Shown: positions 12,071 through 27,666, counted from the stretch's first letter. The stretch is DNA of 37,877 nt from SRR31156797_7382, one strand, 5' to 3'. Notes: a model not told the origin generated them from the letters alone. Program-made: numbers and translations.

Positions 12071-12084
12071 GCTTCTTTTTTTTT
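12053..12084 (+). terminator. Terminator overlapping the helicase stop codon
   Basis: AAAAGAAGC-GTAA-GCTTCTTTT followed by a T-run. Confidence 0.7.
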
Positions 12085-12307
12085 GCCGTTAAATCAATGT
12101 TTTAGATATATTGTTTAAGAAAATCAAAACAGAAAAAACATTTTATCACTAATAAGTCACGAATAATTAATGATCTGTAGGTTTTAATTTACGCTAATTT
12201 TTATTTAAATTTAGTCTACGTTTGATTGGTGGGGATTTTTATTATGCTACTCATTAATTATTCGTTTGTAAATTGGAATCAAATAGAAAACCAAAAATTG
12301 TAGAAAA

Positions 12308-13129
12308 ATGGATATGGATGTAATTATTGGTAAGTCGGATCAGCTATGGACTATGGCTATGGCTTACGCACCAAAATTGTTGTTGGCTATTATTACTTTG
12401 ATAATCGGTTTGTGGATTATCAAGATGATAACCAAGGGAATTTCAAAGTTGATGGAAAAAAATCAGTTGGATGAGACTTTAAAGCCATTCATCATCAGTA
12501 TGCTTTCCATTCTTCTGAAAATCATGCTATTTATTGCGGTTGTGGATATGGTAGGGGTTAAAATGACTTCCTTCATTGCAATATTAGGTGCCGCGGGTTT
12601 GGCAGTAGGTATGGCTTTATCCGGAACACTACAAAATTTTGCAGGTGGAGTTATGATCCTTATTTTCAAACCATTTAAGGTTGGTGATTTGTTAGAAGCT
12701 CAAGGTTACCTTGGAGTTGTAAAGGAAATTCAATTGTTCAATACGATCATGCTTTCGCTTGATAATAAGACTATTATTATTCCTAATGGAGGTTTATCTA
12801 CTAGTTCTATGATTAATTACTCTACTCAACCAACAAGAAGAGTTGATATGAGCTTTGGTATTGGATATACTGATGATATTGATAAAGCAAAAGGTATTTT
12901 AGAAGGTTTGCTGGCTAATCATCCTAAGGTATTGAAAGATCCGGCAAGTTTTATTGCGGTTTCAGAATTGGCTGATAGCTCGGTTAACTTTACCGTTAGA
13001 GCTTGGGTGAATGCAGCTGATTATTGGGATGTATTTTTCTATATGCAAGAAACGGTTAAAAAAGAGTTTGATAAAAATAAAATTGGAATTCCTTTCCCAC
13101 AAAGAGACGTTCACATTTACAATCATTAA
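12308..13129 (+). CDS. mscS: Small-conductance mechanosensitive channel
   Basis: 3 TM segments, GAAGLAVGMALSGTLQNFAGG, KPFKVGD, IPN, IPFPQ. Confidence 0.95.
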   Translation: MDMDVIIGKSDQLWTMAMAYAPKLLLAIITLIIGLWIIKMITKGISKLMEKNQLDETLKPFIISMLSILLKIMLFIAVVDMVGVKMTSFIAILGAAGLAVGMALSGTLQNFAGGVMILIFKPFKVGDLLEAQGYLGVVKEIQLFNTIMLSLDNKTIIIPNGGLSTSSMINYSTQPTRRVDMSFGIGYTDDIDKAKGILEGLLANHPKVLKDPASFIAVSELADSSVNFTVRAWVNAADYWDVFFYMQETVKKEFDKNKIGIPFPQRDVHIYNH

Positions 13130-13145
13130 TAGTTTAGGGTTAAAC

Positions 13146-13175
13146 GAGGAGGAGGCGAGAGTCTCCTTTTTTTTT
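13146..13175 (+). terminator. Intrinsic terminator
   Basis: GGAGGAGGC-GAGA-GTCTCCTTT followed by a T-run. Confidence 0.75.
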
Positions 13176-13253
13176 GCTTTAATTCTTAACAAAAAAAGCA
13201 ATTTTAATATCATTATTATTTTTAGATTTGTTTTGTCAATATAAAATAAAACT

Positions 13254-15449
13254 ATGAAGCGTTTGTCAAAGAAAAAGATCATTCTTCTATCAATTTTTAT
13301 CATTCTATTTTTCTTTCTGTTTTTTCTCTCATCTATAGTGAAATCCTATGTTGTAAATAACTCTATGAAATTAACTGGCAGAAAGTTAGAGATGTCAGAA
13401 TTGCATTTTAACTATGTTAAAGTATCTGCACGTATAAAAGGATTGAAGCTTTTTGAGCAAGATGCATCGAATGAGTTTGTTTCGTTCAATGAGTTGTATG
13501 TAAATGTTTCTCCCTGGAAATTGATATCTGGAGAATATGCTGTATCCCAAATTTATCTTGATGGATTAAATGTATCGGTAATTCAGGATAGTATTGGCTT
13601 TAATTTTGATGATTTAATAACTTCAGATGAAACTACAATAGTAGACAGTACAACAATAGATGAAGAAAAATCTGATTTGAAATTTGCAATTCATGATATC
13701 AAGTTTTCAAATGGATACATTGTTTATCAGGATATAGAAAAGAGCAATAAACTGGATCTGAATAATATAAATTTGGAATTGCCTTTGATTGCCTGGAACA
13801 ATAAGAAATCAGAAATGGGTGTCAATTTTTCTTTAGGTAAAGAAGGTAATGTTTCGATTAGTGCAGATGTTGATCATTCTATAGAAAGATATTTTATCGA
13901 TTTAGGAGTAAGTTCTCTCGATATTAGTCCTTTTGTAGCTTATTTAAAGGATTATATGCATGTTTCAGAAATGCGGGGCAAATTGAATTCTCAGATTAAA
14001 ATTGAGGGAAGCATGGTTGATTTTATGGATGTTTATTTAAAAGGTAAAGTTCAAATGAACGATTTTGTTTTAAAAGACACCGAAGGGAATAAATTTTTAG
14101 GCAGTCAATCTACTATGATAGAATTAGACTCAATGCATGTGGCTTCTTCTTATTACAAAATTGGAAAGATTGTTCTTACTAAACCTGAAATATATGCAGC
14201 TCTTTTTAAAGAGAAAAGCAATTTTGAATCGATATTTGCTCCGGTTATGGAAGTGGATTCTGTAAATATTGCGATAGATACATTAGAAAAAAAAGAAGAG
14301 AGTGAATTGTTTTATTCTATTGATAGTTTAATTGTTGAAAATGGTTTTGTTGAGTTTGCCGATCATACTCTGAATCGAAAATTTATTTATGATATTAATG
14401 ATATCCAATTGAATATTGGAAGAATAACAGACAAAGCTAACGAAATTCCATTGAACTATTCCATTGACTTAAATGGAGGGGGATATTCAGAAGGAAATGT
14501 AATATTTAGTCTTAAGGATGTCCATAATTTTAAATTTGATGGAACTTTAGATCGACTTGATTTAACGAGTTTTTCACCTTATACTGAATTCTATATTGCC
14601 AGACCGATAAAACAGGGAGAATTCAATTACGATTGTAGTATTGTAATGAAGCCAAAAAAGTTAATCAATACCAATAAAATTAACATTTCGGAATTTGATT
14701 TTGGTGATAAAACTAACGATCCAAATACGATAAAGGCTCCGGTTCGTTTGGCTTTGTATCTGTTGAAGGATAAGAACGATCAGATTAATTTTGACTTGCC
14801 TGTTTCGGGAAATCCTAACTCTCCTGATTTTAAGCTGGGTAAAATTATTTGGAAAACATTAATGAATTTTCTTGTGAAAACAGCTGCAAAACCTTTCGGT
14901 ATATTAGGAAATTTAGCTGGAACCAACCCAGAAAGCATTGAGAAGATGCCATTTGAAATTGCTCAGGATAAGTTAAGTGATAATGAAAAATTAACGCTAA
15001 ATAAGATTGCTACGATCCTTACTAAAAAGCCTGAATTGAAATTTACATTCACGCAAGAGACCAATATAGATGATGAAAAGAAAATGATAGCATTGAGAGA
15101 ATGTGCATCCAAATATTTTGAAAGTCGAGCATTGCCAAAAAAATATTTAATTGGTAATGAGCTTTTAAATTGGACAAATTCGACAATTGAATTTCAAAAT
15201 TTTATTACAAAGGACAGCACGGATCTTGACTTATCTATTGAAGAAAAATGCATTGGTTTTATCGGAAATGAAAAATTAACCGGTTATACAGATTCCATAT
15301 TGCTAAATAGAAATAATGAGGTAAGAGTTTATTTGAAAGATAGTTTGAATGTTTCAAATCAAAATTTCGAAGTAAGAACTGCTGATTTGAGAAATCTCTC
15401 GGAACAACAAAGAAAACCAAAGTACAGAGTTGAAGTATCTTTGAAGTAA
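13254..15449 (+). CDS. DUF748 / AsmA-like envelope protein
   Basis: N-terminal TM, FNFDDL, L..FSPY, PVRLALYLLKD....I.FDLPVSG....PDF, TA.KPF motifs. Confidence 0.8.
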   Translation: MKRLSKKKIILLSIFIILFFFLFFLSSIVKSYVVNNSMKLTGRKLEMSELHFNYVKVSARIKGLKLFEQDASNEFVSFNELYVNVSPWKLISGEYAVSQIYLDGLNVSVIQDSIGFNFDDLITSDETTIVDSTTIDEEKSDLKFAIHDIKFSNGYIVYQDIEKSNKLDLNNINLELPLIAWNNKKSEMGVNFSLGKEGNVSISADVDHSIERYFIDLGVSSLDISPFVAYLKDYMHVSEMRGKLNSQIKIEGSMVDFMDVYLKGKVQMNDFVLKDTEGNKFLGSQSTMIELDSMHVASSYYKIGKIVLTKPEIYAALFKEKSNFESIFAPVMEVDSVNIAIDTLEKKEESELFYSIDSLIVENGFVEFADHTLNRKFIYDINDIQLNIGRITDKANEIPLNYSIDLNGGGYSEGNVIFSLKDVHNFKFDGTLDRLDLTSFSPYTEFYIARPIKQGEFNYDCSIVMKPKKLINTNKINISEFDFGDKTNDPNTIKAPVRLALYLLKDKNDQINFDLPVSGNPNSPDFKLGKIIWKTLMNFLVKTAAKPFGILGNLAGTNPESIEKMPFEIAQDKLSDNEKLTLNKIATILTKKPELKFTFTQETNIDDEKKMIALRECASKYFESRALPKKYLIGNELLNWTNSTIEFQNFITKDSTDLDLSIEEKCIGFIGNEKLTGYTDSILLNRNNEVRVYLKDSLNVSNQNFEVRTADLRNLSEQQRKPKYRVEVSLK

Positions 15450-15505
15450 TCTAAAAAAAAGAATAATAGCTGAGAAAGATCATTTAATTTATAGCTTTTA
15501 CAAAG

Positions 15506-15540
15506 TATCTTGTAAAACTATGTGTTTTTTTATATGTTTG
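15506..15540 (+). promoter_or_regulatory. padR promoter with overlapping 19-bp operator
   Basis: TATCTTGTAAAACTATGTG (15506-15524) covers the TTG -33 element; TATGTTTG -7 box at 15533-15540. Confidence 0.7.
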
Positions 15541-15547
15541 TTAAACC

Positions 15548-15901
15548 ATGAATCAAGAAATAAACGAATATTTTATAACCAAATGGAAATCCCAGTTTAA
15601 GAAGGGACTTTTGGAATATATTATCTTGTTATTGTTAAGATCTAAACCGTGTTACGGTTATGAATTAATTAGCGAGATGAATCAATTTACATCCCTCGAA
15701 ATTGCTGAAGGAACCATTTATCCTCTTTTAAATAGATTGAAAAAGGAGAAACTGGTAACTTCGGAATGGGCAGAAATGGATACTGGTATTCCAAGAAAAT
15801 ACTATAAACTTACCGATGAGGGGATTTCGCATCTTGCAGTGATGCGAGAATATGTTGATTCTTTAAATCTATCTATTAAGAGAATAGAAGAAAGTGTTTA
15901 A
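15548..15901 (+). CDS. PadR-family transcriptional regulator
   Basis: KG.LE..IL.LL....YGYEL, EGTIYPLLNRL, W......PRKYY.LT..G. Confidence 0.95.
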   Translation: MNQEINEYFITKWKSQFKKGLLEYIILLLLRSKPCYGYELISEMNQFTSLEIAEGTIYPLLNRLKKEKLVTSEWAEMDTGIPRKYYKLTDEGISHLAVMREYVDSLNLSIKRIEESV

Positions 15902-15932
15902 GAATTTTGAAAAATCTAATAATTACCAGGGA

Positions 15933-17429
15933 ATGAAAGATTATATTTTATCCTTAGATCAGGGAACTTCAATTTCAAAGGCAATTTTATTTAATAAAAA
16001 AGGTGAAATAGTTGCCCAAGTTCAAAAGGAGTATGAACAGTATTATCCTAAGCCTGGTTGGATCGAGCAGGATGCTAAGGAAATATGGTATTCACAAGCT
16101 TCAGTTGCTGAAGAGGTGCTTGCCAAAGCGGGTTTAACTGGTAAGGATATTGCAGGATTGGGAATCACAAATCAACGTGAAACTACAATTATCTGGGATA
16201 GGGAAACAGGTGAACCAATCAATAATGCGATTGTTTGGCAGGACAGAAGAACTTCTCATATTTGTGACGATTTAAAAGGGAAGGGATTCTCTAAAAAAAT
16301 AAAAGAAAAAACTGGTTTAATTTTAGATGCTTTTTTCTCAGCAACTAAAATAAAATGGCTTCTTGATAATATTGAAGGAGTCAGAGAGAAAGCTGAACAA
16401 GGCAAATTGGCTTTTGGAACCGTTGATAGCTGGTTAATTTGGAAACTTACCAAAGGTGAAGTTCATGTTACAGATGTTTCCAATGCCAGTAGAACCATGC
16501 TCTATAATATTCATGATCTTTGTTGGGATGAAGAATTATTAGAGTTAATGGACATTCCTAAATCCATTCTTCCAAAAGTTTGTTCTTCTAGTGAAATTTA
16601 TGGATACACTAAAAGATCTATGTTTAGTGAAGAGATTCCGATTTCCGGAATTTGTGGCGATCAGCAAGCAGCACTATTTGGTCAGGCTTGTTTTGAAAAA
16701 GGTATGGTTAAAAATACCTACAATACTGGTTGCTTTATGTTGATGAATACGGGGACCGAACCAGTTGAGTCGAAAAATGATTTGATAACAACAATAGCAT
16801 GGGGAATTGGAGATAAGGTTACCTACGCTTTAGAAGGAAGTGTATTTATTGGAGGTGCTGTTGTTCAATGGTTGCGCGATAGTTTAAATCTGATTCATTC
16901 AATTGAAGAAATTGAATCGCTCGCTTTAACCGAAAAGGATAATGGAGGTGTGTATATCGTTCCTTCATTTACAGGCTTGGGAGCACCTTATTGGGATCAG
17001 TATGCCAGAGGAACCTTTTGGGGCTTAAATATGGGAACTAGTGCAGGTCATATTGCACGTGCCTCATTAGAATGTATTGCTCATCGTTCTTCAGATGTAC
17101 TAAAAACAATGGAGGCTGATTCTGGTATTAAAGTAGAACAGTTAAGAGGTGGAGGCTTAATGGCCAATGATACTTTATTGCAATATCAAGCTGATTTTCT
17201 GAATTTGCCTATTGTTAGACCTGAAATTAAGGAAATTACTGCTGTTGGAGCAGCTTATTTAGCCGGATTAGGTGTTGGTTTTTGGAATAGTGTTGAGGAG
17301 ATTCAAGATCATTGGAAACTTGATAAGGAGTACGATGTTAAAATGGATAAGGAAATTGTTAAGCATCATAAGAAATATTGGGAAAAGGCTGTAAGTCGAT
17401 CACAAAATTGGATAGATGCTGACGATTAA
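15933..17429 (+). CDS. Glycerol kinase paralog (FGGY) with degenerate ATP-binding motifs
   Basis: Keeps TNQRETT, WQDRRT, GDQQAA but has DQGTSISK, YNTGCF and LRGGG in place of [14 protein letters not shown] and LRVDGG; ATG 15933 (GTG 15894 possible). Confidence 0.85.
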   Translation: MKDYILSLDQGTSISKAILFNKKGEIVAQVQKEYEQYYPKPGWIEQDAKEIWYSQASVAEEVLAKAGLTGKDIAGLGITNQRETTIIWDRETGEPINNAIVWQDRRTSHICDDLKGKGFSKKIKEKTGLILDAFFSATKIKWLLDNIEGVREKAEQGKLAFGTVDSWLIWKLTKGEVHVTDVSNASRTMLYNIHDLCWDEELLELMDIPKSILPKVCSSSEIYGYTKRSMFSEEIPISGICGDQQAALFGQACFEKGMVKNTYNTGCFMLMNTGTEPVESKNDLITTIAWGIGDKVTYALEGSVFIGGAVVQWLRDSLNLIHSIEEIESLALTEKDNGGVYIVPSFTGLGAPYWDQYARGTFWGLNMGTSAGHIARASLECIAHRSSDVLKTMEADSGIKVEQLRGGGLMANDTLLQYQADFLNLPIVRPEIKEITAVGAAYLAGLGVGFWNSVEEIQDHWKLDKEYDVKMDKEIVKHHKKYWEKAVSRSQNWIDADD

Positions 17430-17450
17430 AAAAGTATATTTTTAGTATTT

Positions 17451-17486
17451 AAAAGGTTATTTCACAATTGGAATAACCTTTTTTTT
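17451..17486 (+). terminator. Terminator of the padR-glpK-like unit
   Basis: AAAAGGTTATT / AATAACCTTTT followed by a T-run. Confidence 0.8.
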
Positions 17487-17545
17487 ATTTGTAAATCACT
17501 GATAATGGATTTGTTAATGTATTTTTTTAGAATAGTTATAAATAG

Positions 17546-17596
17546 TATCTTTTTTTACTATGCACATTGTATTGCTAAGTATTTTATTTAGATTTG
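17546..17596 (+). promoter_or_regulatory. glpT-operon promoter with operator(s)
   Basis: CACATTGTATTGCTAAGTA (17563-17581), weaker copy at 17546-17564; TAGATTTG -7 box at 17589-17596, 19 nt after TTG. Confidence 0.75.
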
Positions 17597-17639
17597 CCAT
17601 TGTTCTTAAGGATTAAGATAATCTATAGATGGTTAACTT

Positions 17640-17669
17640 ATCTCTTAAGCATTATTAGAGATTTTTTTT
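17640..17669 (+). terminator. Leader terminator-like hairpin upstream of glpT
   Basis: ATCTCT...AGAGAT stem followed by T8; weak, but at the same position as the glpD leader terminator. Confidence 0.5.
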
Positions 17670-17677
17670 ACAACACA

Positions 17678-17696
17678 TACATAGTTAAACAATGTG
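17678..17696 (-). promoter_or_regulatory. Downstream operator copy (inverted), glpT leader
   Basis: TACATAGTTAAACAATGTG; reverse complement CACATTGTTTAACTATGTA fits the operator consensus. Confidence 0.7.
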
Positions 17697-17728
17697 TTGT
17701 GCAATAAGATTTACATTCCAATACTACT

Positions 17729-17875
17729 ATGAAAGATGTCAAACTTGATGAACAGCTAGAGGATCGTTTATACTTTTTTTTCTCGAAAATTCTTGATTTA
17801 CAAAAGCAAGTAAAATTAAAAGAAAAGAATGTTGAGTATAGCAGTATTTGGGAGTTTTGGGATGGTGAATTATAA
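17729..17875 (+). CDS. Unannotated 48-aa small protein MKDVKLDEQLEDRLYFFFSKILDLQKQVKLKEKNVEYSSIWEFWDGEL
   Basis: Paralog of 22414..22557 (21/48 identical, synonymous codon changes, same stop position). Confidence 0.8.
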   Translation: MKDVKLDEQLEDRLYFFFSKILDLQKQVKLKEKNVEYSSIWEFWDGEL

Positions 17876-17937
17876 GTAGCTTCTATCGGATAGATTGAGA
17901 ATGATCAAAATTACAATAACCATTAATTTTTATTAAT

Positions 17938-19275
17938 ATGATCGGATTTTTAAAGCCAGCTCCTCATAAGGAGTTGATGCCTGAGGATAATGTTGACTCT
18001 GCATACAAACGATTGCGATGGCAAGTGTTTGTTGGTATATTCTTAGGGTATGCAGGTTATTACCTTGTACGAAAGGTTTTCTCATTGGCAATGCCTGATT
18101 TAGTGAATTTAGGATATTCAAAAACTCAATTGGGATTTGCTTTATCGGGAGTTTCCATTGCATATGGATTAAGTAAGTTCATTATGGGGAATGTCTCAGA
18201 TAGGAGTAATGCACGTAGGTTTCTAACTCTTGGATTAGTTCTTTCTGCAATTACTATGATAGTTATGGGAGTTTTGCCTGTGGCTACATCTTCAATTGCG
18301 ATAATGTTTGTTCTATTATTGATGAATGGATGGTTTCAAGGAATGGGATGGCCTCCTTGTGGACGTGTAATGGTTCATTGGTTTTCCATTCGTGAAAGAG
18401 GAACTAAAATGTCAATTTGGAATGTTGCTCACAATGTAGGTGGAGGTATTATTGGTCCTTTAGCTATTTTGGGTGTTGCCATTTTTGTTGATTGGCAAGC
18501 AAAACTATACTTTCCTGGTATAGTTGCTTTAGTAGTTGCCTTTATAGCATGGCTTTTAATACGTGATACACCACAATCTTGCGGTTTACCAAATATCGAA
18601 AAATATAAGGATGATTATCCTGAATCTTATTCGGAGAAGTTTGAGAAGGAAATGACTGCAAAACAAATATTCCTTGAATATATTCTTAAGAACAGACTTT
18701 TATGGATGATTGCAATAGCGAATGCTTTCGTTTATTTAGTGCGTTACGGTGTGCTAGATTGGGCTCCTCTATATTTAGAAGAGGCTAAAGGTTTTTCAAT
18801 TGAAGAGACGGGATGGGCCTATTTCGCATATGAGTGGGCAGGAATACCAGGAACATTACTTTGTGGATATTTAAGTGATACTGTTTTTAAAGGAAAACGT
18901 GCTCCTGTAAGTATCATTTATATGGTTTTTGTAACTATTTCAGTATTCATGTACTGGATAAGTGATTCTATTGTTGCGAATTCTATTGCATTGGTTTGTA
19001 TAGGTTTCTTGATCTATGGACCTGTAATGTTAATAGGTGTACATGCTCTTGATTTGGTTCCGAAAAAAGCAGCAGGAACTGCTGCAGGACTAACAGGCTT
19101 ATTTGGCTATATGGGAGGAGCGTTGTTTGCAAATATAGCGATGGGTGCTGTTGTGGATAAATGGAGTTGGTCAGGTGGTTTCATTGTTCTTTTAGCGGCT
19201 TGTGTAATGTCAATACTCTTTATAGCTATTTCATGGTTACAAGAGTTGAGAGGTCATAACGGAATTCATCATTAG
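17938..19275 (+). CDS. glpT: Glycerol-3-phosphate:phosphate antiporter (MFS)
   Basis: GIFLGYAGYYLVRK, WFQGMGWPPC, WN.AHNVGG, YL.RYGVLDW, GTAAG.TGLFGY. Confidence 0.96.
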   Translation: MIGFLKPAPHKELMPEDNVDSAYKRLRWQVFVGIFLGYAGYYLVRKVFSLAMPDLVNLGYSKTQLGFALSGVSIAYGLSKFIMGNVSDRSNARRFLTLGLVLSAITMIVMGVLPVATSSIAIMFVLLLMNGWFQGMGWPPCGRVMVHWFSIRERGTKMSIWNVAHNVGGGIIGPLAILGVAIFVDWQAKLYFPGIVALVVAFIAWLLIRDTPQSCGLPNIEKYKDDYPESYSEKFEKEMTAKQIFLEYILKNRLLWMIAIANAFVYLVRYGVLDWAPLYLEEAKGFSIEETGWAYFAYEWAGIPGTLLCGYLSDTVFKGKRAPVSIIYMVFVTISVFMYWISDSIVANSIALVCIGFLIYGPVMLIGVHALDLVPKKAAGTAAGLTGLFGYMGGALFANIAMGAVVDKWSWSGGFIVLLAACVMSILFIAISWLQELRGHNGIHH

Positions 19276-19328
19276 TATAAAAATTAACTACTTATTGAAA
19301 ATATAATTTAACCTAGAAAAACAGTAAT

Positions 19329-20639
19329 ATGAAAAAAATTAATCTAAAAAACCTATTATTTGGTGCAGTAGCTTTGTGCAGTGTAGGCTTGGTTGGGTGT
19401 GAAGATGATACTCCTGATTACAATGAATTTAATTACTACAAAACGTATCCTTTGAAAGAACTTAGTGCTGAAGCTAAAGCGGTAAGAGATTATGTGAAAA
19501 GTGATATTGTTATTGCACATAGAGGTTCAACGTTTTGGGCTCCTGAAGAAACCGAAGCGGCTTTCCGTTGGGCTAGAAATATGGGTGCTGATTACCTTGA
19601 GATTGATTTGCAAAGAACTAAAGATGGTGTATTATTAGCACTTCATGATAATAACTTGAGAAGAACATCTAATATTGAGAGTATGTTCCCAGGAAAAGAA
19701 GATTATCCTGTTAGTTATTTTACTTTAGCTGAATTGAGAAAGCTTGATGCTGGTGCTTGGTTTAATGTTGATGTGCCAGAGAACGCAAGAGAATCATTTG
19801 TTGGAGAGAAAATTTCTACTCTTGAAGAGGTGTTGAAAATTGCTGAAGGATATAGAATTCTTAGAGATGTAAATGGAGAGCCAGTTAAAGATATGACAAA
19901 ACTTACTGAAGCAGGTGAGTGGGCTGGATATTATGAATTTGAAGTTGATCCTCAGGATAATGGAAATCGTCCAGGTGTATACGCCGAGACAAAAGAACCA
20001 TATTTATTTTCTGGAATGGAAGCTGATTTGGCAACTTTCTTAACTGCTGAAGGATGGAATGTAACTTCTTCTCCAAAAGTTATTCCTACAATTGCAGGTA
20101 AAGTTGATGTAGCGAATACAAATGGTCGTTTTATTTTGCAATCATTCTCTAGACAATCAATTGTTAACCTTGAAAAGGAATTGCCAGGTGTGCCTAAGTG
20201 TATGTTGTTATGGGAAGATGAAAGTGCATCTTATGTAAGACCTTCTAATACAATTGAGTCTTTGGCTGAGTTTATCAATTTCTCTGTAGAATATAACTGT
20301 CATATTGCAGGTCCTTCAATCGAAGGTAAACCAAATGGTTACCCAGATCTTACTGAGCCTTGGATGTGTGAAATGTACCACAGAGCAGGAATGCTTGTAC
20401 ATGCTTATTCATTTGATACTGAAGATCAGTTAAGAAAGTATAATGGAGATTACTTTTATGGTGGTGTATCTCGTTTCGATGATCCTAATAGAACTGTACA
20501 AGGAAACTTTAATTATGATGTAAATCCAAATATGTTTATCGATGGTGGATTTACTAATCTTACAGACCTTTCTATGAATTACCAGAAGCGTGAAGTAGTT
20601 GGAACTGCTCAAGAAGTGTTGGACGCTTTAGGTTATTAA
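19329..20639 (+). CDS. glpQ: Glycerophosphodiester phosphodiesterase lipoprotein (GlpQ-like)
   Basis: Lipobox LVGC; IAHRG, E.D...TKDG....HD, QSF motifs; follows glpT. Confidence 0.88.
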   Translation: MKKINLKNLLFGAVALCSVGLVGCEDDTPDYNEFNYYKTYPLKELSAEAKAVRDYVKSDIVIAHRGSTFWAPEETEAAFRWARNMGADYLEIDLQRTKDGVLLALHDNNLRRTSNIESMFPGKEDYPVSYFTLAELRKLDAGAWFNVDVPENARESFVGEKISTLEEVLKIAEGYRILRDVNGEPVKDMTKLTEAGEWAGYYEFEVDPQDNGNRPGVYAETKEPYLFSGMEADLATFLTAEGWNVTSSPKVIPTIAGKVDVANTNGRFILQSFSRQSIVNLEKELPGVPKCMLLWEDESASYVRPSNTIESLAEFINFSVEYNCHIAGPSIEGKPNGYPDLTEPWMCEMYHRAGMLVHAYSFDTEDQLRKYNGDYFYGGVSRFDDPNRTVQGNFNYDVNPNMFIDGGFTNLTDLSMNYQKREVVGTAQEVLDALGY

Positions 20640-20675
20640 TCAATTTCTATTTACAAATTATTAAGCAAAAGTAAT

Positions 20676-22016
20676 ATGTTTAAAAAATTATATATAGCTG
20701 CCTTATTAACGGGAGTGCTAGCATCAGGGGCAAATGCTCAGGAAAATGAAATATCAGTTGAAAATCCAAATGGAGGAATTAAATTAACTTCTGCTGATAA
20801 AGAATATCAAGTAAGTATAAATGGTAGAATTTATATGGATGGTGTTCACTATTTTGATGATGTAACTGATTTAAGTTCGGATGTATCTGTTAGTGATATT
20901 CGCTTTGGAACAAGTGTGAGATGGGGAAAATGGAGTGCTAAGGTAAACGTTGGCTTTGGTAATGATGAGGTGAAAATTAAAGATGCATTCTTAAGATATC
21001 ACCATAAAAAGAATAGCACTTTTACTGTTGGTAATTTCTTTGAGCCATTTGGAATTGAGGCGGCAGAGTCAAGTAAAAACTTAAGATTTATTGGTTCCTC
21101 TAATACAACTCAATCAATGGGTATTGGTCGTGGAGTTGGTTTGGGATATACGTACTACACTCAAAAATTCTATGGTTCAACTGGTATTTTTGCAGGAACA
21201 GTTGATAATAATAGTAAAGGTGATCAAGGATTTTCTACTACTTCGAAAGTTGCATATACTCCGATTCAAAATGAAGATTTTGTATTCCAAGTTGGAGGAT
21301 CGTTTACTTACAGAAAGCCAGAAGCTAATGGTTTTAACGAAAGCTTCAACGATGATGATTACAATCGTGTAGTTGAATTCGCAGCGGGTCCTGAGCACAA
21401 ATTCTTAAACGCTACCATGAATGGTGCGCAGTCTGATATGAGGTTTAATTTCCAAACATTAGCATTAAAGGGTTCATTTATGTTGCAAGCAGAGTATACT
21501 CAAGCTAAAGTAACTCGTGATGATGATTATGTGTCAAAATTAATGAAAGATGGTCCATTGTATTACGTTACTTATGCATGGCCTGTAGCTCCTAAAGATT
21601 ATCCTGATTGGTATGGTGAGCTTCGTGATATAGAAACAAAAGCTTACTATGTACAAGCTGGATTTTTACTAGGCGATGATTATAAATATAACTCATCAAC
21701 TGCATATATTAAGAGACCTAAAGCTGGTGCTTTCGAATTTCTTGTACGTTACGATCATACAGATTTAAATGATGTTGATGGAACTTATTTTAATGGTAGC
21801 TATGGTCCTGCAGATTTAAATGCTGCGTTGGGTGGCGCTGGTAATATGAGTGTTCAAGGAGGAAAAGCTGATACCTATAGCTTAGCTGTAAATTACTATT
21901 TAAGCTCTAATGTAATGTTTCGTTTGAATTATGACTATATGGATGTTGATAATCAAAAATATCCTTTAGATAAGAATATCGGAGTATTAAAAGGACGAAT
22001 TCAAGTTAACTTTTAG
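20676..22016 (+). CDS. OprO/OprP-like (phosphate-selective) porin
   Basis: Signal peptide, GRIYMD, IKDAFL, G.F.EPFG.E, QAEY, terminal R.QVNF. Confidence 0.8.
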   Translation: MFKKLYIAALLTGVLASGANAQENEISVENPNGGIKLTSADKEYQVSINGRIYMDGVHYFDDVTDLSSDVSVSDIRFGTSVRWGKWSAKVNVGFGNDEVKIKDAFLRYHHKKNSTFTVGNFFEPFGIEAAESSKNLRFIGSSNTTQSMGIGRGVGLGYTYYTQKFYGSTGIFAGTVDNNSKGDQGFSTTSKVAYTPIQNEDFVFQVGGSFTYRKPEANGFNESFNDDDYNRVVEFAAGPEHKFLNATMNGAQSDMRFNFQTLALKGSFMLQAEYTQAKVTRDDDYVSKLMKDGPLYYVTYAWPVAPKDYPDWYGELRDIETKAYYVQAGFLLGDDYKYNSSTAYIKRPKAGAFEFLVRYDHTDLNDVDGTYFNGSYGPADLNAALGGAGNMSVQGGKADTYSLAVNYYLSSNVMFRLNYDYMDVDNQKYPLDKNIGVLKGRIQVNF

Positions 22017-22041
22017 TACCTTAATAAATAATGATATAATT

Positions 22042-22075
22042 GACTGGCTTGCCTAATTGGTGAGTCAGTTTTTTT
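22042..22075 (+). terminator. Terminator of glpT-glpQ-porin
   Basis: GACTGGCTTGCC-TAATT-GGTGAGTCAGTT followed by a T-run. Confidence 0.8.
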
Positions 22076-22243
22076 ATAATATTGCATCAAGAAGTTAAAT
22101 AAATACAAAATTAAATGATTTTAATTTACTCGATTATTATAAATTAAAATAGAAATTACTTTAGCTGTAAGTCAATAAATATTGGGAATCTGGAGTTTAT
22201 GGAGTTTTTAGACTAAATTAAAACAATACTTTTCTTTGCCTAG

Positions 22244-22277
22244 CACCTTGCATTACTAAGTAATTTATTTAGCTTTG
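22244..22277 (+). promoter_or_regulatory. glpD promoter with overlapping operator
   Basis: CACCTTGCATTACTAAGTA (22244-22262); TAGCTTTG -7 box at 22270-22277; aligns without gaps to the glpT promoter. Confidence 0.75.
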
Positions 22278-22331
22278 TATTGTTCGAGTTTATAATTAGA
22301 AATTGATTTATTCAAACTAGCTTATAAAACG

Positions 22332-22357
22332 ATTGGAAGAAAGCTTCCAATTTTTTT
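22332..22357 (+). terminator. Leader terminator upstream of glpD
   Basis: Perfect ATTGGAAG-AAAG-CTTCCAAT hairpin followed by a T-tract. Confidence 0.7.
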
Positions 22358-22365
22358 GATAGAAC

Positions 22366-22384
22366 TACATAGCAATACAAAGTG
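22366..22384 (-). promoter_or_regulatory. Downstream operator copy (inverted), glpD leader
   Basis: TACATAGCAATACAAAGTG; reverse complement CACTTTGTATTGCTATGTA is 17/19 identical to the glpT promoter site. Confidence 0.75.
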
Positions 22385-22413
22385 CTGTGTATTCACATTT
22401 ATTTTTTACTGCT

Positions 22414-22557
22414 ATGGAAGACATGAAATTTGATATGCAAATGGAAAATCGCCTTTATTCTTTTTTCTTAGACCTTTTGGCCGGACAAAATGATAAGCTT
22501 GTTCAAGAAGATGAACAAAATGGAAGTATCTGGAAATACTGGGAAGAGGAATTATAA
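22414..22557 (+). CDS. Unannotated 47-aa small protein MEDMKFDMQMENRLYSFFLDLLAGQNDKLVQEDEQNGSIWKYWEEEL
   Basis: Paralog of 17729..17875; shared RLYxFF and SIWxxWxxEL-stop. Confidence 0.8.
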   Translation: MEDMKFDMQMENRLYSFFLDLLAGQNDKLVQEDEQNGSIWKYWEEEL

Positions 22558-22596
22558 GCGATAATACAAACGTGGTTTATTACAAAGAGAAATAAG

Positions 22597-24144
22597 ATGT
22601 ATAGAGAGGTTGAAAGTGTAAAACAGAAATGGGATGTGATCATTGTAGGTGGTGGAGCGTCAGGCTTGGGAGCAGCTATTGAGTCGGTAACTCGTGGATA
22701 CAAAACACTACTTCTGGAGCAGGATGATTTTGCTAAAGGAACTTCGAGTAGAAGTACCAAGCTTGTTCATGGTGGCGTTCGTTATCTTGCTCAGGGAAAT
22801 ATATCATTGGTTTTGGAAGCTTTAAGAGAAAGAGGTTTGTTAAAGCAAAATGCACCTCACTTGGTAAAAGATCAATCATTTATTATTCCTAATTATACAT
22901 GGTGGGGAACACCTTACTATACTTTAGGTTTAACAATGTACGACCTAATGGCTGGGAAATTAGGTTACGGGCGATCATTGCCTTTCTCTAAAAAAAGAAC
23001 GCTAAAGCATATTCCTACACTAAAAAGCGAAAATCTTTGTGGTGGAGTTGTTTATCACGATGGACAATTTGATGATTCCAGATTGGCAATTAATATGTGT
23101 CAAACTTTTGTAGAAAATGGTGGAGTTGCTATCAACTACATGAAGGTTGAAGGATTTGAAAAGAAGAATGGAAAAATTTCAGCAGTGAAAGCTACTGATT
23201 TGGAGAGTGGAACAAAATATACGATAGAAGGTAAAGTAGTTTTGAATGCAACGGGAGTTTTTGTTGATAAAGTTATCAAAATGGACGAACCTAAAGCAAA
23301 AGACATCGTAAAGGTCAGTCAAGGTGTACATTTGGTTTTAGATAAGGAATTTGTGCCGGGAGATTATGCAGTGATGATTCCTAAAACCAGTGACGGTCGT
23401 GTTCTTTTTGCTGTGCCATGGCATAACAAAGTTGTTGTAGGAACCACCGATGTACACAAAGATTGTGCAGAACTAGAACCTAGAGCGTTGGAAGAGGAAG
23501 TTGATTTTATTTTAGAGACTGCGGGTAGATTCTTATCAAAACCTCCTAAAAGATCAGATGTAAGAAGCGTATTTGCTGGTTTAAGACCATTGGCAGCACC
23601 AAGTGGCGATGGTAAAAAAACAAAGGAAATATCTAGAGGACATAAGATAGTTGTTTCCGATTCGGGAATGGTAACCTTAACTGGTGGTAAATGGACTACT
23701 TACCGTCAAATGGCAGAAGATGTAATGAATACTGTTGCCAAAACAGCAGGATTACAAGAGAAGAAGTCACAAACAAGAAATCTAAAAATTCATGGATATA
23801 AGCTAAATCCAGATTTAAGCAATCCCATGTATTTCTATGGCTCCGATGAAGAGAAGATTTTAGATTTAGCTAAAAAAGAAGATGGTTTGGATGAGTATTT
23901 AAGCTCAAAGCTAAAAGTGCTGAATGCACAAGTGGTTTGGGGAGCTAGATATGAAATGGCCAGAACCGTTGAAGATATATTATCTAGAAGAACACGTTCA
24001 TTACTTCTTGATGCTAAGGAGAGTATAGAGATGGCTCCAAAGGTAGCGGAATTAATGGCTAAGGAATTAGGATACGATAAACAATGGGAAGAGAATCAAG
24101 TAAAGGAATACAAAAACTTGGCCTCTCGATACATTTTGATATAA
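22597..24144 (+). CDS. glpD: FAD-dependent glycerol-3-phosphate dehydrogenase/oxidase
   Basis: GGGASG, GTSSRSTKLVHGGVRYL, DGQFDDSRL, AGLRPL, GGKWTTYR.MAE. Confidence 0.95.
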   Translation: MYREVESVKQKWDVIIVGGGASGLGAAIESVTRGYKTLLLEQDDFAKGTSSRSTKLVHGGVRYLAQGNISLVLEALRERGLLKQNAPHLVKDQSFIIPNYTWWGTPYYTLGLTMYDLMAGKLGYGRSLPFSKKRTLKHIPTLKSENLCGGVVYHDGQFDDSRLAINMCQTFVENGGVAINYMKVEGFEKKNGKISAVKATDLESGTKYTIEGKVVLNATGVFVDKVIKMDEPKAKDIVKVSQGVHLVLDKEFVPGDYAVMIPKTSDGRVLFAVPWHNKVVVGTTDVHKDCAELEPRALEEEVDFILETAGRFLSKPPKRSDVRSVFAGLRPLAAPSGDGKKTKEISRGHKIVVSDSGMVTLTGGKWTTYRQMAEDVMNTVAKTAGLQEKKSQTRNLKIHGYKLNPDLSNPMYFYGSDEEKILDLAKKEDGLDEYLSSKLKVLNAQVVWGARYEMARTVEDILSRRTRSLLLDAKESIEMAPKVAELMAKELGYDKQWEENQVKEYKNLASRYILI

Positions 24145-24415
24145 GAGATTATTTGTAGGACGAATTGAGTAAAGAATTTATTAAAGGTAGTTCTTAGTCT
24201 GTTATTTATAACTACTGATTTTATTAATTGTTACAATATTATTAATCAATTTGTTAGTTTTGGCACGAAATTACTTTGCACAATCGTCCTACTTTTTGCT
24301 CCTGAAGGATAAGTGATCATGCAAATCACAGTCTTCATATACAACTAACCAAGAACTCTTGAAATAGGAGTTGGTAATTTTTAATCTTTACGATTAAAAA
24401 AATTTATCTCGCTTT

Positions 24416-24429
24416 TGCAATCGTTTACA
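24416..24429. promoter_or_regulatory. LacI/cre-like palindrome upstream of glpK
   Basis: TGCAATCGTTTACA fits TGnAAnCGnTTnCA. Confidence 0.45.
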
Positions 24430-24505
24430 ATTGGTAAATCTTAGCAAAAATGAGTTCGGAAAGAGAGTATTTTAATTAACACTATAACCCAAATTAATTA
24501 GAAGT

Positions 24506-26005
24506 ATGGAAGACAAGTTTATTTTAGCTTTAGACCAGGGAACTACAAGTTCCAGAGCAATCGTTTTCAATAAGAAGGGCGAGATGATAAGCACGGCGCA
24601 GAAAGAATTCACCCAAATTTTTCCACAGCCGGGCTGGGTAGAGCATGATGCAAACGAAATTTGGTTTACGCAAGCTGGAGTTGCTGCAGAAGCAATTACA
24701 CATGCAGGAGCTAATGGAAAGAGTATTGCGGGGATTGGTATCACTAACCAGAGAGAGACTACTGTTGTATGGGATCGTGAGACAAGTGAACCAATTTATA
24801 ATGCAATTGTGTGGCAGGATCGTCGTACGTCTAAGTATTGTGATGAGTTAAAGACTCAGGGACATGCTGATATGATTCAGGATAAAACAGGTTTAATTAT
24901 CGACTCGTATTTTTCTGGAACAAAAGTAAAGTGGATTCTTGATAATGTAGAAGGAGCTCGCGAAAAAGCAAAGGCAGGAAAATTGGCTTTTGGTACTATT
25001 GATAGCTGGCTAATCTGGAAATTAACTCAAGGTAAAGTGCATGTAACTGATGTTACTAATGCAAGTAGAACTTTACTTTATAACATCAAAACCTTAGAGT
25101 GGGATACTGAAATGTTAGAACTTCTTGATATTCCTGAAAGTATGTTACCAGAGGTTAAATCTTCTTCAGAAGTATACGGACATACTGTAACCACTTTATT
25201 TGCTCACGAGGTACCTATTGCTGGTATTGCAGGTGATCAGCAAGCAGCTACATTCGGTCAAATGTGTATTAAACCAGGATCGGTTAAAAATACTTACGGA
25301 ACAGGATGTTTCATGCTATGTAATACAGGTAATAAGCCAGTAAAATCGAACAACAATTTGTTAACAACTATTGGTTGGCAAATTAATGGCGAAACTACTT
25401 ACTGTCTTGAAGGAAGTATTTTCATGGGAGGCGCAATTGTACAGTGGTTACGCGATGGTTTAGGAATTATTAAATCATCTCCTGAGGTTGAAGAACTAGC
25501 AGGTTCGGTTGAAGATAACGGAGGTGTATTCCTGGTTCCTGCACTTACAGGTTTAGGAGCTCCACATTGGGATCAGTATGCAAGAGGAACAATTGTAGGA
25601 TTGACAAGAGGTGCAACTTCAGCACACATCGCAAGAGCAGCATTGGAAGGTATCGCATTCCAGACTATGGATGTATTGAAAGCAATGGAAGCAGATGCAG
25701 GAATTAAGATTAACGAACTTCGTGTTGATGGTGGTGCTGCAATTAATAACCTATTAATGCAATTCCAGTCGGATGTATTGGATGCTCCGGTTTACAGACC
25801 AAAAACTCTTGAAACAACTGCATTAGGTGCTGCATATTTAGCAGGTTTGGCAGTTGGATATTGGGATAGTATAGATGATATAAAGAGCCAGTGGGCAATG
25901 GATCGTAAGTTTGAGCCAGAAATGCCTAAAGAAAAATCTGAGAAATTGATTAAAGGTTGGGACAAAGCCCTAGGTCGTTCAAAAGATTGGGATACTGAAG
26001 CTTAA
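24506..26005 (+). CDS. glpK: Glycerol kinase
   Basis: All canonical motifs: [45 protein letters not shown]. Confidence 0.97.
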
Positions 26006-26033
26006 TTTTCAACATCTAATATATTTTTAAACC

Positions 26034-26084
26034 AATGCCGGAATATGGAGAAGAAGGAATGGATGAAGACAGAATTCCGGCATT
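26034..26084. repeat. 11-bp perfect inverted repeat between glpK and glpF
   Basis: AATGCCGGAAT ... ATTCCGGCATT around a 29-nt purine-rich loop. Confidence 0.8.
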
Positions 26085-26120
26085 CTTTTATTAACAATTA
26101 CTAAATAAAACCATATTATC

Positions 26121-26855
26121 ATGAGTGAATTTGTTGCAGAATTTATAGGAACCATGTTACTGATATTATTAGGTAACGGAGTAGTTGCAAATGTTGTATT
26201 GAATAAAACAAAAGGAAACAATAGCGGTTGGATCGTAATCACAATGGGGTGGGGATTGGCCGTATTTACAGGTGTTGCAGTTGCAGGTCCTGTTTCAGGA
26301 GCTCACATTAACCCTGCCGTAACTATTGGATTGGCATTAGCAGGTATGTTTGCCTGGTCAAAAGTAGGTCTTTTTATAGCGGCTCAAATGTTAGGAGCAG
26401 CTATGGGTGCATTCCTTGTTTGGTTAATGTATCGCGATCATTTTAATTCTACTGAAGATGGTGGAGCTAAATTGGCTTGTTTCTCTACAGGTCCAGCTAT
26501 CAGAAACATTGGAAGTAACGCAATTAGTGAGGTTATTGGTGCTTTTGTATTGATGTTCGTTATCTTTTATTTGGCTGGTCCTTCTCTTGAAGCTGCTGGA
26601 ATGGAAGGTGCTAAAATTGGATTAGGAACTTTAGGTGCTTTACCTGTTGCCTTATTGGTTGTTGCTATTGGTCTTTCGTTAGGCGGAACTACTGGATATG
26701 CAATTAATCCTGCTAGAGACTTAGGTCCAAGAATCATGCATGCTATTCTACCTATGCAAAATAAAGGTACAAGCGACTGGGCGTATTCATTGGTGCCTAT
26801 CGTTGCTCCAATTGTAGGAACTGCCATTGCAGCATTCTTATTTATGTATCTATAA
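26121..26855 (+). CDS. glpF: Glycerol uptake facilitator (aquaglyceroporin)
   Basis: SGAHINPAVT and GYAINPARDLGPR (NPA-R-D) motifs. Confidence 0.96.
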   Translation: MSEFVAEFIGTMLLILLGNGVVANVVLNKTKGNNSGWIVITMGWGLAVFTGVAVAGPVSGAHINPAVTIGLALAGMFAWSKVGLFIAAQMLGAAMGAFLVWLMYRDHFNSTEDGGAKLACFSTGPAIRNIGSNAISEVIGAFVLMFVIFYLAGPSLEAAGMEGAKIGLGTLGALPVALLVVAIGLSLGGTTGYAINPARDLGPRIMHAILPMQNKGTSDWAYSLVPIVAPIVGTAIAAFLFMYL

Positions 26856-26925: not shown

Positions 26926-26943
26926 CCCAAAAATTTGAATCTA

Positions 26944-27666
26944 ATGAAAAAATCAGTCCTAAAAATATCGTTATTATTTGCATTGATAATCATATTTGCA
27001 TCAAATATGAATGTAAATGCACAAGGAAAAGTAACAGTTAGTCCATCGGTAACTACTCGTCATTATTGGAGGGGTATTATGGTAAGTAATACAGCTAATT
27101 TTGAAATGGATTTAGCTTACACTAACAATAATTTTACATTCGGAGCCTGGGGTGGATATGCATTTGACAACACCTACTCAGAGTTCGATTTCCATGTAGG
27201 ATATAAGTTTAGTGATCATTTTAATGTTGCAGTTTGGGATTTATTTGCAAATCGCGACAGAGCTTCTATTGACGATTACAACTATCTTGATTTAGACAGA
27301 AGTACAACAAATCACTTGATAGATGCGAGTTTAAATTTTTACGTTAATGAGAAATTTCCATTAAGTGTTTGTGTAAGTACTATGCTTTACGGACGCGATT
27401 TGGATGAGAATGGTGATCAAAACTATTCAACTTACGTGGAATTTGGATATCCTGTTAAAATAGGTGGAGAAACAGTTTCTCTATTTGCAGGTTTAAATGC
27501 TTTCGAAGATCAAGTATATGGAGAGAGCTTTGGTTTTGTAAATATTGGAGCTACTGCTACAAGAGAAATCAAGATTAATGATAACTTTTCTTTAAATGCA
27601 TGGGCTAAGATTGGTATTAACCCACAGGCAGAAACTGCTAACCTAATTTTGGGTATTGGTTTCTAA
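26944..27666 (+). CDS. Outer-membrane beta-barrel protein (TorF-like putative porin)
   Basis: Signal peptide, Y.WRG, G.WG, E.D..VGY, STYVE.GY, terminal Phe. Confidence 0.7.
   Translation: MKKSVLKISLLFALIIIFASNMNVNAQGKVTVSPSVTTRHYWRGIMVSNTANFEMDLAYTNNNFTFGAWGGYAFDNTYSEFDFHVGYKFSDHFNVAVWDLFANRDRASIDDYNYLDLDRSTTNHLIDASLNFYVNEKFPLSVCVSTMLYGRDLDENGDQNYSTYVEFGYPVKIGGETVSLFAGLNAFEDQVYGESFGFVNIGATATREIKINDNFSLNAWAKIGINPQAETANLILGIGF

Follow-up and report, generated by a model that had tools for sequence, protein, structure and literature searches.

The glp locus and its small open reading frames

The stretch SRR31156797_7382, which has 37,877 nucleotides (nt) and is referred to below as the window, belongs to a marine member of the Bacteroidota whose nearest GlpD relatives occur in Marinifilum and Labilibaculum (86-90% GlpD identity). 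Two small open reading frames (ORFs), both on the plus strand like every other feature of the locus described here, stand at the head of its glp operons. ORF A (17729..17875) starts with ATG, encodes 48 amino acids (aa) and lies 62 nt before an MFS/GlpT-type gene, and ORF B (22414..22557) encodes 47 aa and lies 39 nt before glpD-glpK-glpF; the ORF B frame extends further upstream to a GTG at 22387, which would give a product of 56 aa. A first-pass annotation, made from the sequence alone, had placed both ORFs at these coordinates and given their translations and their start contexts (TACTACTATG and TACTGCTATG), all of which proved accurate. It had also proposed that the two are paralogues, and in a BLASTP comparison they share 21/48 identities and 33/48 positives with one gap of a single residue (E 2e-11), a resemblance far beyond chance. 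The similarity is not confined to the ORFs, as about 190 nt of 5' DNA are also alike, and the ORFs are one part of a larger duplicated leader cassette, composed of promoter, terminator and box, that had been absent from that annotation. The term 'unannotated' is applicable to the window at most, for homologues of 48-49 aa are entered in RefSeq/GenBank as 'hypothetical protein', with exact sequences in, for example, Marinifilum caeruleilacunae, M. fragile, Labilibaculum and Ancylomarina.

The genes around the two ORFs form three operons. Upstream of ORF A, padR (15548-15901; PadR family, 117 aa, Pfam PF03551 at 3.6e-21) overlaps FGGY2 (15894-17429), a glycerol-kinase paralogue with FGGY_N/C domains, and this operon (15548..17429) ends in a terminator-like hairpin with a 14-pair stem and a T-tail (17451..17490). 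The same padR-FGGY2 pair is syntenic 5' of glp genes in Marinifilum, Ancylomarina and two Prolixibacteraceae metagenome-assembled genomes (MAGs), and is a candidate regulator operon of the locus. ORF A is followed by genes assigned with Pfam as glpT (17938-19275, MFS), a glycerophosphodiester phosphodiesterase (19329-20639) and a phosphate-selective porin O/P (20676-22016), which together occupy 17938..22016 and are closed by a second terminator-like hairpin (22042..22080; 12-pair stem, T-tail). Within the porin gene, at 21257/21298, one contig of run X17 joins opposite strands, probably as an assembly or library artefact. Downstream of ORF B lie glpD (22597-24144), glpK (24506-26005) and glpF (26121-26855), likewise assigned with Pfam and spanning 22597..26855. 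A 243-aa ORF 3' of glpF (26935-27666) keeps its synteny in Marinifilum, Labilibaculum and Ancylomarina; it has no Pfam match and only a weak, sub-threshold NCBIfam match to the TorF-family putative porins (E 2.7e-4).

Evidence that the ORFs encode proteins

ORF A and ORF B are real protein-coding genes under purifying selection. Selection was assessed on 20 unique 48-codon sequences with the GY+F1X4 codon model under maximum likelihood (ML) and with pairwise Nei-Gojobori estimates. The ML value of omega was 0.145, and fixing omega at 1 lowered the log-likelihood by 71 units, from -1272.7 to -1343.6; the median pairwise omega was 0.23 over 160 of 190 pairs, the other 30 being saturated. The 20 sequences, with a G+C content of 33.8%, contain no in-frame stop, and reading them in the two shifted frames yields 48 and 76 stops; variability at codon positions 1, 2 and 3 stands at 57, 38 and 81. 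Residues that never change are nonetheless written with several codons, namely five each at L14 and L19, three at R13 and three at L48 (TTG, CTT and TTA), while Y15 is split 10:10 between TAT and TAC. Indels in the family alignment preserve the frame, and the frame is kept across genera; the selection on the protein put forward in the first-pass annotation is strongly supported.

The constraint is unevenly distributed along the peptide. The ratio of nonsynonymous to synonymous differences per site (pN/pS) is 0.54 for codons 2-12, 0.26 for the RLYxFFxDhL core (codons 13-22), 0.70 for the linker (codons 23-37) and 0.18 for the C-terminal G-SIWxFWxxEL segment (codons 38-48). The two aromatic patches singled out beforehand as RLYxFF and SIWxxWxxEL are thus the most constrained parts and stand as motifs; the second is clade-specific, since it is missing from Ancylomarina-type members, in which only the RLY/RFYxFF core is kept. 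Synonymous sites are unusually constant in places, with codon 39 being AGT in 20/20 sequences and pS lower in codons 2-12.

Assembled metatranscriptome contigs of relatives bridge the 3' part of ORF B into glpD, one from an RNA library (X15, 22497-22662) and one from a probable RNA library (X16, 22463-24167). Contigs of this kind are informative on neither transcript ends nor translation, and their course fits co-transcription of ORF B with glpD. No RNA contig covers 22167-22462 or the whole glpT leader and ORF A; with assembled contigs, such a gap says nothing on where transcripts start.

Distribution and diversity of the family

The taxonomic family that holds Marinifilum, Labilibaculum and Ancylomarina was represented by 96 genomes, and a profile built from four sequences detected the ORF in 20 of them; a 22-sequence profile that included divergent members detected it in 28. 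Among 401 evenly sampled genomes of the order, the sole credible match was the centre genome itself. Two further order-level matches were judged to be due to chance, one (G218) lying antisense inside a 618-aa ORF and the other (G208) containing two TGA stops and having no glp genes nearby, and the same applies to a weak Labilibaculum match (L087, E 0.09) with no glp genes nearby. When all stop-to-stop frames of 80 GlpD-bearing loci across the Bacteroidota were scanned with the profile, matches were confined to L001-L003, L005 and L006. The contrast between 28/96 near genomes and the lack of other credible matches in the order and in the Bacteroidota loci indicates that the family is restricted to one lineage. 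Representative libraries gave six matches among 1.84 billion proteins and one in an index of 5.8 billion clusters. Some long apparent members of clusters 2 and 5 (P0016, P0018, P0032 and P0033), considered as possible fusions, were unrelated proteins brought in by a clustering artefact.

The first-pass annotation had suggested a profile search for homologues upstream of glp genes, and 35/37 copies examined lie directly 5' of glpD or glpT (21 before glpD and 6 before glpT, with 8 further Ancylomarina-type loci). Nothing had been recorded on the family under any curated entry: Pfam returned no family at E <= 10 for ORF A and ORF B, NCBIfam none at E <= 1 for four family members, a profile search of the PDB none at E <= 10, and the ESM Atlas no usable match. 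A literature search at the level of abstracts, with passages of PMC6429828, found nothing on these small proteins or on regulation of bacteroidotal glp genes by PadR. Within these searches there is no curated family, structure or paper for the family.

Family members are 40-59 aa in length and share the core (D/N)R(L/F)YxFFx(D/E)hh, with SIWxFWxxEL present in most genera. Linker length is variable, by up to 11 residues (48-59 aa in P0004-P0006), and three metagenomic members of 55-59 aa have a longer linker with both motifs present. The position of S(I/L)WxFWxxEL relative to the stop is invariant in the Marinifilum/Labilibaculum-type and P0004-6 members, and the motif is missing in 10 Ancylomarina-type copies. 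At 8 loci, the Ancylomarina-type ORFs lie 5' of the second glpD copy or of glpT and keep MEQQNDFTFEF..M(D/N)R(F/L)YxFFSDLL, followed by unrelated polar tails without the Trp motif. In two Ancylomarina genomes a further copy follows the glpT operon, with 250-306 nt separating it from a porin-like gene, and no P1 promoter consensus or CATAG box (both described below) was seen in the upstream sequence read. Ancylomarina genomes also have two glpD copies with 72-75% identity to the GlpD of the window (L005:8006-9574 and 11825-13393; L118-L125); the second heads the glpT operon, and it is this copy that the small ORF precedes. The leaders of the first copy, glpD1, contain only ORFs of 3-4 codons after the box.

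The frame is intact in 24/27 Marinifilum/Labilibaculum-type copies, and at least one intact copy is present in 27/28 genomes. The three disrupted copies are found in two genomes. The glpD-type copy of G002 has a TAA at codon 2, though codons 8 and 10 are both ATG in the same frame, and the T-run coding Phe-Phe in its glpT-type copy carries a +1 shift; the glpT-type copy of G066 has an ATT start and two compensating frameshifts. Downstream of these glpT-type copies glpT is intact over the 377 residues examined (94-95% identity), and the promoter, T-run and box are kept. The frameshifts may be homopolymer assembly errors. The Phe-Phe(-Phe) codons of the core form a T6-T8 homopolymer (17773-17780 in the window; also in L086 and L113), the length of which differs in both frameshifted copies (G002 and G066); this run could be a mutational hot spot or a source of assembly error.

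The peptides are strongly acidic and contain no hydrophobic stretch that could cross a membrane as a helix. AlphaFold2 predicts, at moderate confidence (mean predicted local distance difference test, pLDDT, 72), two amphipathic helices rich in aromatic residues, at positions 2-36 and 39-46.

The leader cassette

Each ORF is the last element of a cassette that is duplicated in the window and conserved in relatives, in the order P1 promoter, hairpin of variable sequence, terminator-like hairpin with a T-run, ACATAG box and ORF. The glpT leader has its P1 promoter at 17566..17596 (ATTG-N19-TAGATTTG), a putative attenuator at 17640..17669 (hairpin ATCTCT..AGAGAT and then T8, with 59 nt between its end and the start of ORF A) and the box at 17679..17702 (ACATAG-N4-ACAATGTGTTGTGC). 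The corresponding elements of the glpD leader are P1 at 22247..22277 (CTTG-N19-TAGCTTTG), a putative attenuator of 9 pairs at 22331..22357 (hairpin GATTGGAAG..CTTCCAATT, then a T-run) and the box at 22367..22390 (ACATAG-N4-ACAAAGTGCTGTGT). A survey of 36 unique cassettes found TTG-N18-21-TAnnTTTG, which we take to be the Bacteroidota -33/-7 promoter consensus, in 34/36, and a short G+C-containing hairpin followed by T6-9 in 36/36. The stems of this hairpin differ between clades (GGAAG/CTTCC, GGGAAG/CTTCCC, TTGGAAG/CTTCCAA, AAGC/GCTT and ATCTCT/AGAGAT), which suggests that the terminator structure is the conserved feature. Since the upstream operons end in terminators of their own, at 17451-17482 and 22042-22070, the leader terminator is an additional one. 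The predicted stability of the leaders is uneven: the glpD leader folds at -16.1 kcal/mol (z -2.94), and the local hairpins of the glpT type are weak, that of the ORF A leader reaching -3.1 kcal/mol, with the minimum free energy (MFE) structure of the whole leader pairing differently.

In most cassettes, 56-69 nt separate the end of the T-run from the ATG. The box, ACATAG-N4-6-ACAWWGTRYYKTGT, follows the T-run after about 10 nt, and its sequence is conserved across genera; CATAG is present in 36/36 cassettes, 46-60 nt before the ATG in most. Predicted pairing of the box differs between genera, which favours a binding site for a protein over an RNA helix of fixed form. In the ORF B leader, the box sequence CAUAGCA can pair with UGCUAUG in the start region (22358-22416; MFE -13.6 kcal/mol, z -2.69), and Marinifilum copies have the complementary pair CAUAGUA/UACUAUG; the pairing is not kept in Labilibaculum. 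Pairing of CAUAG(U/C)A with U(A/G)CUAUG was accordingly rejected as a conserved structure, as it is not the MFE form in most relatives. One of the Prolixibacteraceae MAGs has a box-like ACATCGCTATACAATGTACATAC after the FGGY2 terminator and directly 5' of glpD (L009:9870-9960), with neither P1 nor a small ORF, from which it follows that the box is older and more widespread than the ORF.

No second promoter matching TTG-N19-21-TAnnTTTG was found between box and ORF in an alignment inspected by eye, and the interval from the ORF stop to the glp start contains nothing that resembles a terminator. RNAalifold gave no consensus pairs for 18 glpD-type sequences from ORF codon 26 to glpD +30, and Rfam 15 gave no match at gathering scores over the whole window and none at E <= 1 over 15400-22700. 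In leaders directly before glpD or glpT, 11-131 nt separate the ORF from the gene.

A possible link to the PadR operon

A third version of the promoter lies before padR. Its region (15500..15541) combines a P1-like spacer motif with the 3' half of the box, the motif matches falling at 15500-15513 and 15509-15528; the half box ACAAAGTATCTTGT overlaps the -33 CTTG, and the -7 element TATGTTTG is placed a few bp before the padR ATG. All three promoters (15500-15541, 17566-17596 and 22247-22277) share CTTG-yAwwrCTAwGTrTTTT-...TAnnTTTG, and the Labilibaculum spacer is a near-perfect dyad, AGCTAAGTA-TTT-TATTTAGCT. The figures for the chance expectation of the spacer and box patterns are only indicative, because both patterns were built after the fact on the sites themselves. 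The shared motifs suggest that one regulator, perhaps the PadR protein itself, may control the padR, glpT and glpD promoters. A PadR orthologue of at least 77% identity occurs in 29 genomes, and all 28 genomes with the small ORF are among them. The 117-aa PadR resembles the short, LmrR-like regulators of its family, is encoded beside glp genes, and has a promoter whose P1 spacer and half box recur in both glp leaders. The dyad known for characterised PadR proteins is ATGT-N8-ACAT; the box of the present cassettes differs in being ACAT-N9-ATGT-like. The proposed connection of this PadR with the glp operons is drawn only from the motifs they share and from synteny.

What the small proteins might do

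Our preferred reading, to which we assign a probability of about 0.45, is that the product is a trans-acting, small, acidic and helical protein that binds a protein of the glycerol-phosphate system. The conserved aromatic core, accompanied in most genera by SIWxFWxxEL, would provide the contact surface, and the most plausible targets would be the locus-encoded PadR-family regulator, or else the glycerol kinases or GlpD. The peptide would appear only once transcription of the operons has passed the leader terminator, and as a product of read-through it would feed back on the regulon; feedback by way of PadR or of an enzyme of glycerol-3-phosphate (G3P) metabolism is a conjecture. This reading is ranked first because the two aromatic motifs are separated by a relaxed, length-variable linker, because the stop-proximal motif is dispensable in Ancylomarina-type members, because the ORF has gone from individual cassettes whose operon and other cis elements stay and 27/28 genomes keep one intact copy, because copies without a cassette exist in two Ancylomarina genomes, and because nothing 3' of the ORF looks ribosome-dependent. 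The helical AlphaFold2 prediction was also counted in its favour. Several points weigh against it. A cis-acting leader peptide would show the same placement, within the 5' leader and 11-131 nt ahead of the first structural gene; the ORF was duplicated together with the whole leader; and the spacing between SIWxFWxxEL and the stop is the same in all Marinifilum/Labilibaculum-type copies, a trait of arrest motifs. Both G002 copies are disrupted, meaning that either the protein is dispensable there or the disruptions are assembly errors, the AlphaFold2 confidence is only moderate, and the binding partner is only a candidate. Shared ancestry confounds the co-occurrence of PadR and the small ORF, and in Prolixibacteraceae padR-FGGY2-glpD is found with no small ORF.

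A cis-acting leader or arrest peptide is the main alternative, if on balance a doubtful one. Translation of the ORF, perhaps with stalling in response to a metabolite such as G3P through the nascent RLYxFF...SIWxFWxxEL, would then control the next glp gene; it could do so by blocking the access of Rho or by keeping the start region open, as a second layer of control after the leader terminator. Such a role would account for the location of 35/37 copies directly before glpD or glpT, for the duplication of the ORF with its cassette such that each paralogue heads its own operon, for the strong constraint on the last 11 codons with their fixed stop spacing in the Marinifilum/Labilibaculum clade, and for the RNA-library contigs that join ORF to glpD. 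It is harder to reconcile with the absence of the C-terminal motif in Ancylomarina-type members, with the variation in linker length and in the distance from ORF to gene, with the lack of a conserved structure or terminator downstream of the ORF, and with the two copies that have no cassette. Moreover, two glpT cassettes have a broken ORF and the glpD1 leader of Ancylomarina has lost it, and in these cases the operons and other cis elements persist. The sole leader terminator is upstream of the ORF and so cannot be governed by its translation, and classical attenuation of the trpL/hisL type is excluded, since the terminator precedes the ORF and none lies between the ORF stop and the glp start; tandem repeats of a single codon that might serve in sensing are lacking from the alignment, the two Trp codons do not adjoin, and the regulated genes have no part in making amino acids.

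Three further explanations are less probable. A non-regulatory accessory subunit or assembly factor, stabilising or localising GlpD and/or GlpT as KdpF or CydX do in their complexes, would agree with a first cistron in operons for two G3P-handling proteins, with the predicted amphipathic, aromatic-rich helices, and with the observation that one copy per genome usually suffices. We consider it unlikely: the peptide is strongly acidic and lacks a hydrophobic span for a membrane helix, the two operons have no protein in common, and most GlpD and GlpT proteins of Bacteroidota work without the peptide, including those of Prolixibacteraceae with GlpD 65-68% identical. Similarly improbable is the more specific proposal that the peptide takes the place of a small-molecule ligand of the short PadR regulator: once made by read-through of the leader terminator, it would bind the PadR dimer, release it from the P1/box operators and thereby act as a positive-feedback switch for the G3P regulon. 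The view that constraint on RNA or DNA, such as a structured leader or operator array, is what incidentally keeps the frame open, and that the peptide is functionless, draws on the richness of the surrounding leader in conserved non-coding elements and on the constancy of some synonymous sites (codon 39 and codons 2-12). It is disfavoured and very improbable, given the low omega and the loss of likelihood at omega = 1, the use of 3-5 codons at invariant Leu/Arg positions with TTA/CTT switches included, the frame-preserving indels, and the negative Rfam (E <= 1) and RNAalifold (3' half of the ORF) results.

Comparison with known systems and significance

A conserved small ORF heading a catabolic operon belongs to an already known category. 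TnaC, SpeFL and SecM/VemP, arrest or leader peptides with a regulatory, ligand-sensing role, are likewise short conserved ORFs in 5' leaders directly before catabolic or transport operons, and peptides of this kind share with most members of the new family a set of C-terminal residues at a fixed distance from the stop. The ORFs described here differ in being longer (40-59 aa), in having a core 25-45 residues from the stop and a variable linker, and in a C-terminal motif that some members lack; neither a terminator, nor a rut-like element, nor a structure sequestering the start was found downstream of them, it being understood that Rho sites are not recognisable by sequence. A second parallel is provided by the glpD, glpFK and glpTQ leaders of Bacillus subtilis, on which the antiterminator GlpP acts and which are also related 5' leaders with an intrinsic terminator between promoter and first gene. 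The sequence 5' of the terminator varies between genera in the present cassettes, unlike the B. subtilis leaders, and the latter are not known to encode a conserved peptide. GlpP (PF04309) scored over the cut-off in 0/5 relatives' genomes, with a positive B. subtilis control, and the locus has no obvious GlpR. Finally, SinI, Sda and SgrT, which act in trans as antagonists of regulators or transporters, are, like the candidate proposed here, helical proteins of 40-60 aa co-expressed with the pathway that they modulate, and SgrT is encoded in a regulatory transcript of a sugar-phosphate system. The new family differs from them in that it has no sequence or profile similarity to any family and that its partner is only a candidate.

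What is new is the small-protein family, its link to G3P genes in Bacteroidota, and the three-fold cassette shared with a PadR operon. The small-protein and leader module is narrow in distribution. Control of the use of glycerol and G3P is poorly known in Bacteroidota, and the module is compact, consisting of one promoter-terminator-box cassette in three versions (padR, glpT and glpD) with a conserved small protein as the first translated product. Proteins of about 50 aa are rarely assigned functions, and this family comes with a clear physiological context, with natural knock-outs (G002 and G066) and with paralogues. Its carriers are marine bacteria that can be cultured and are not pathogenic. 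Should the product turn out to arrest ribosomes in response to a metabolite, or to serve a PadR-type protein as its peptide ligand, it would join a small set of known cases, and a ribosome arrest peptide that senses glycerol-3-phosphate would be as new as a peptide that acts on PadR.

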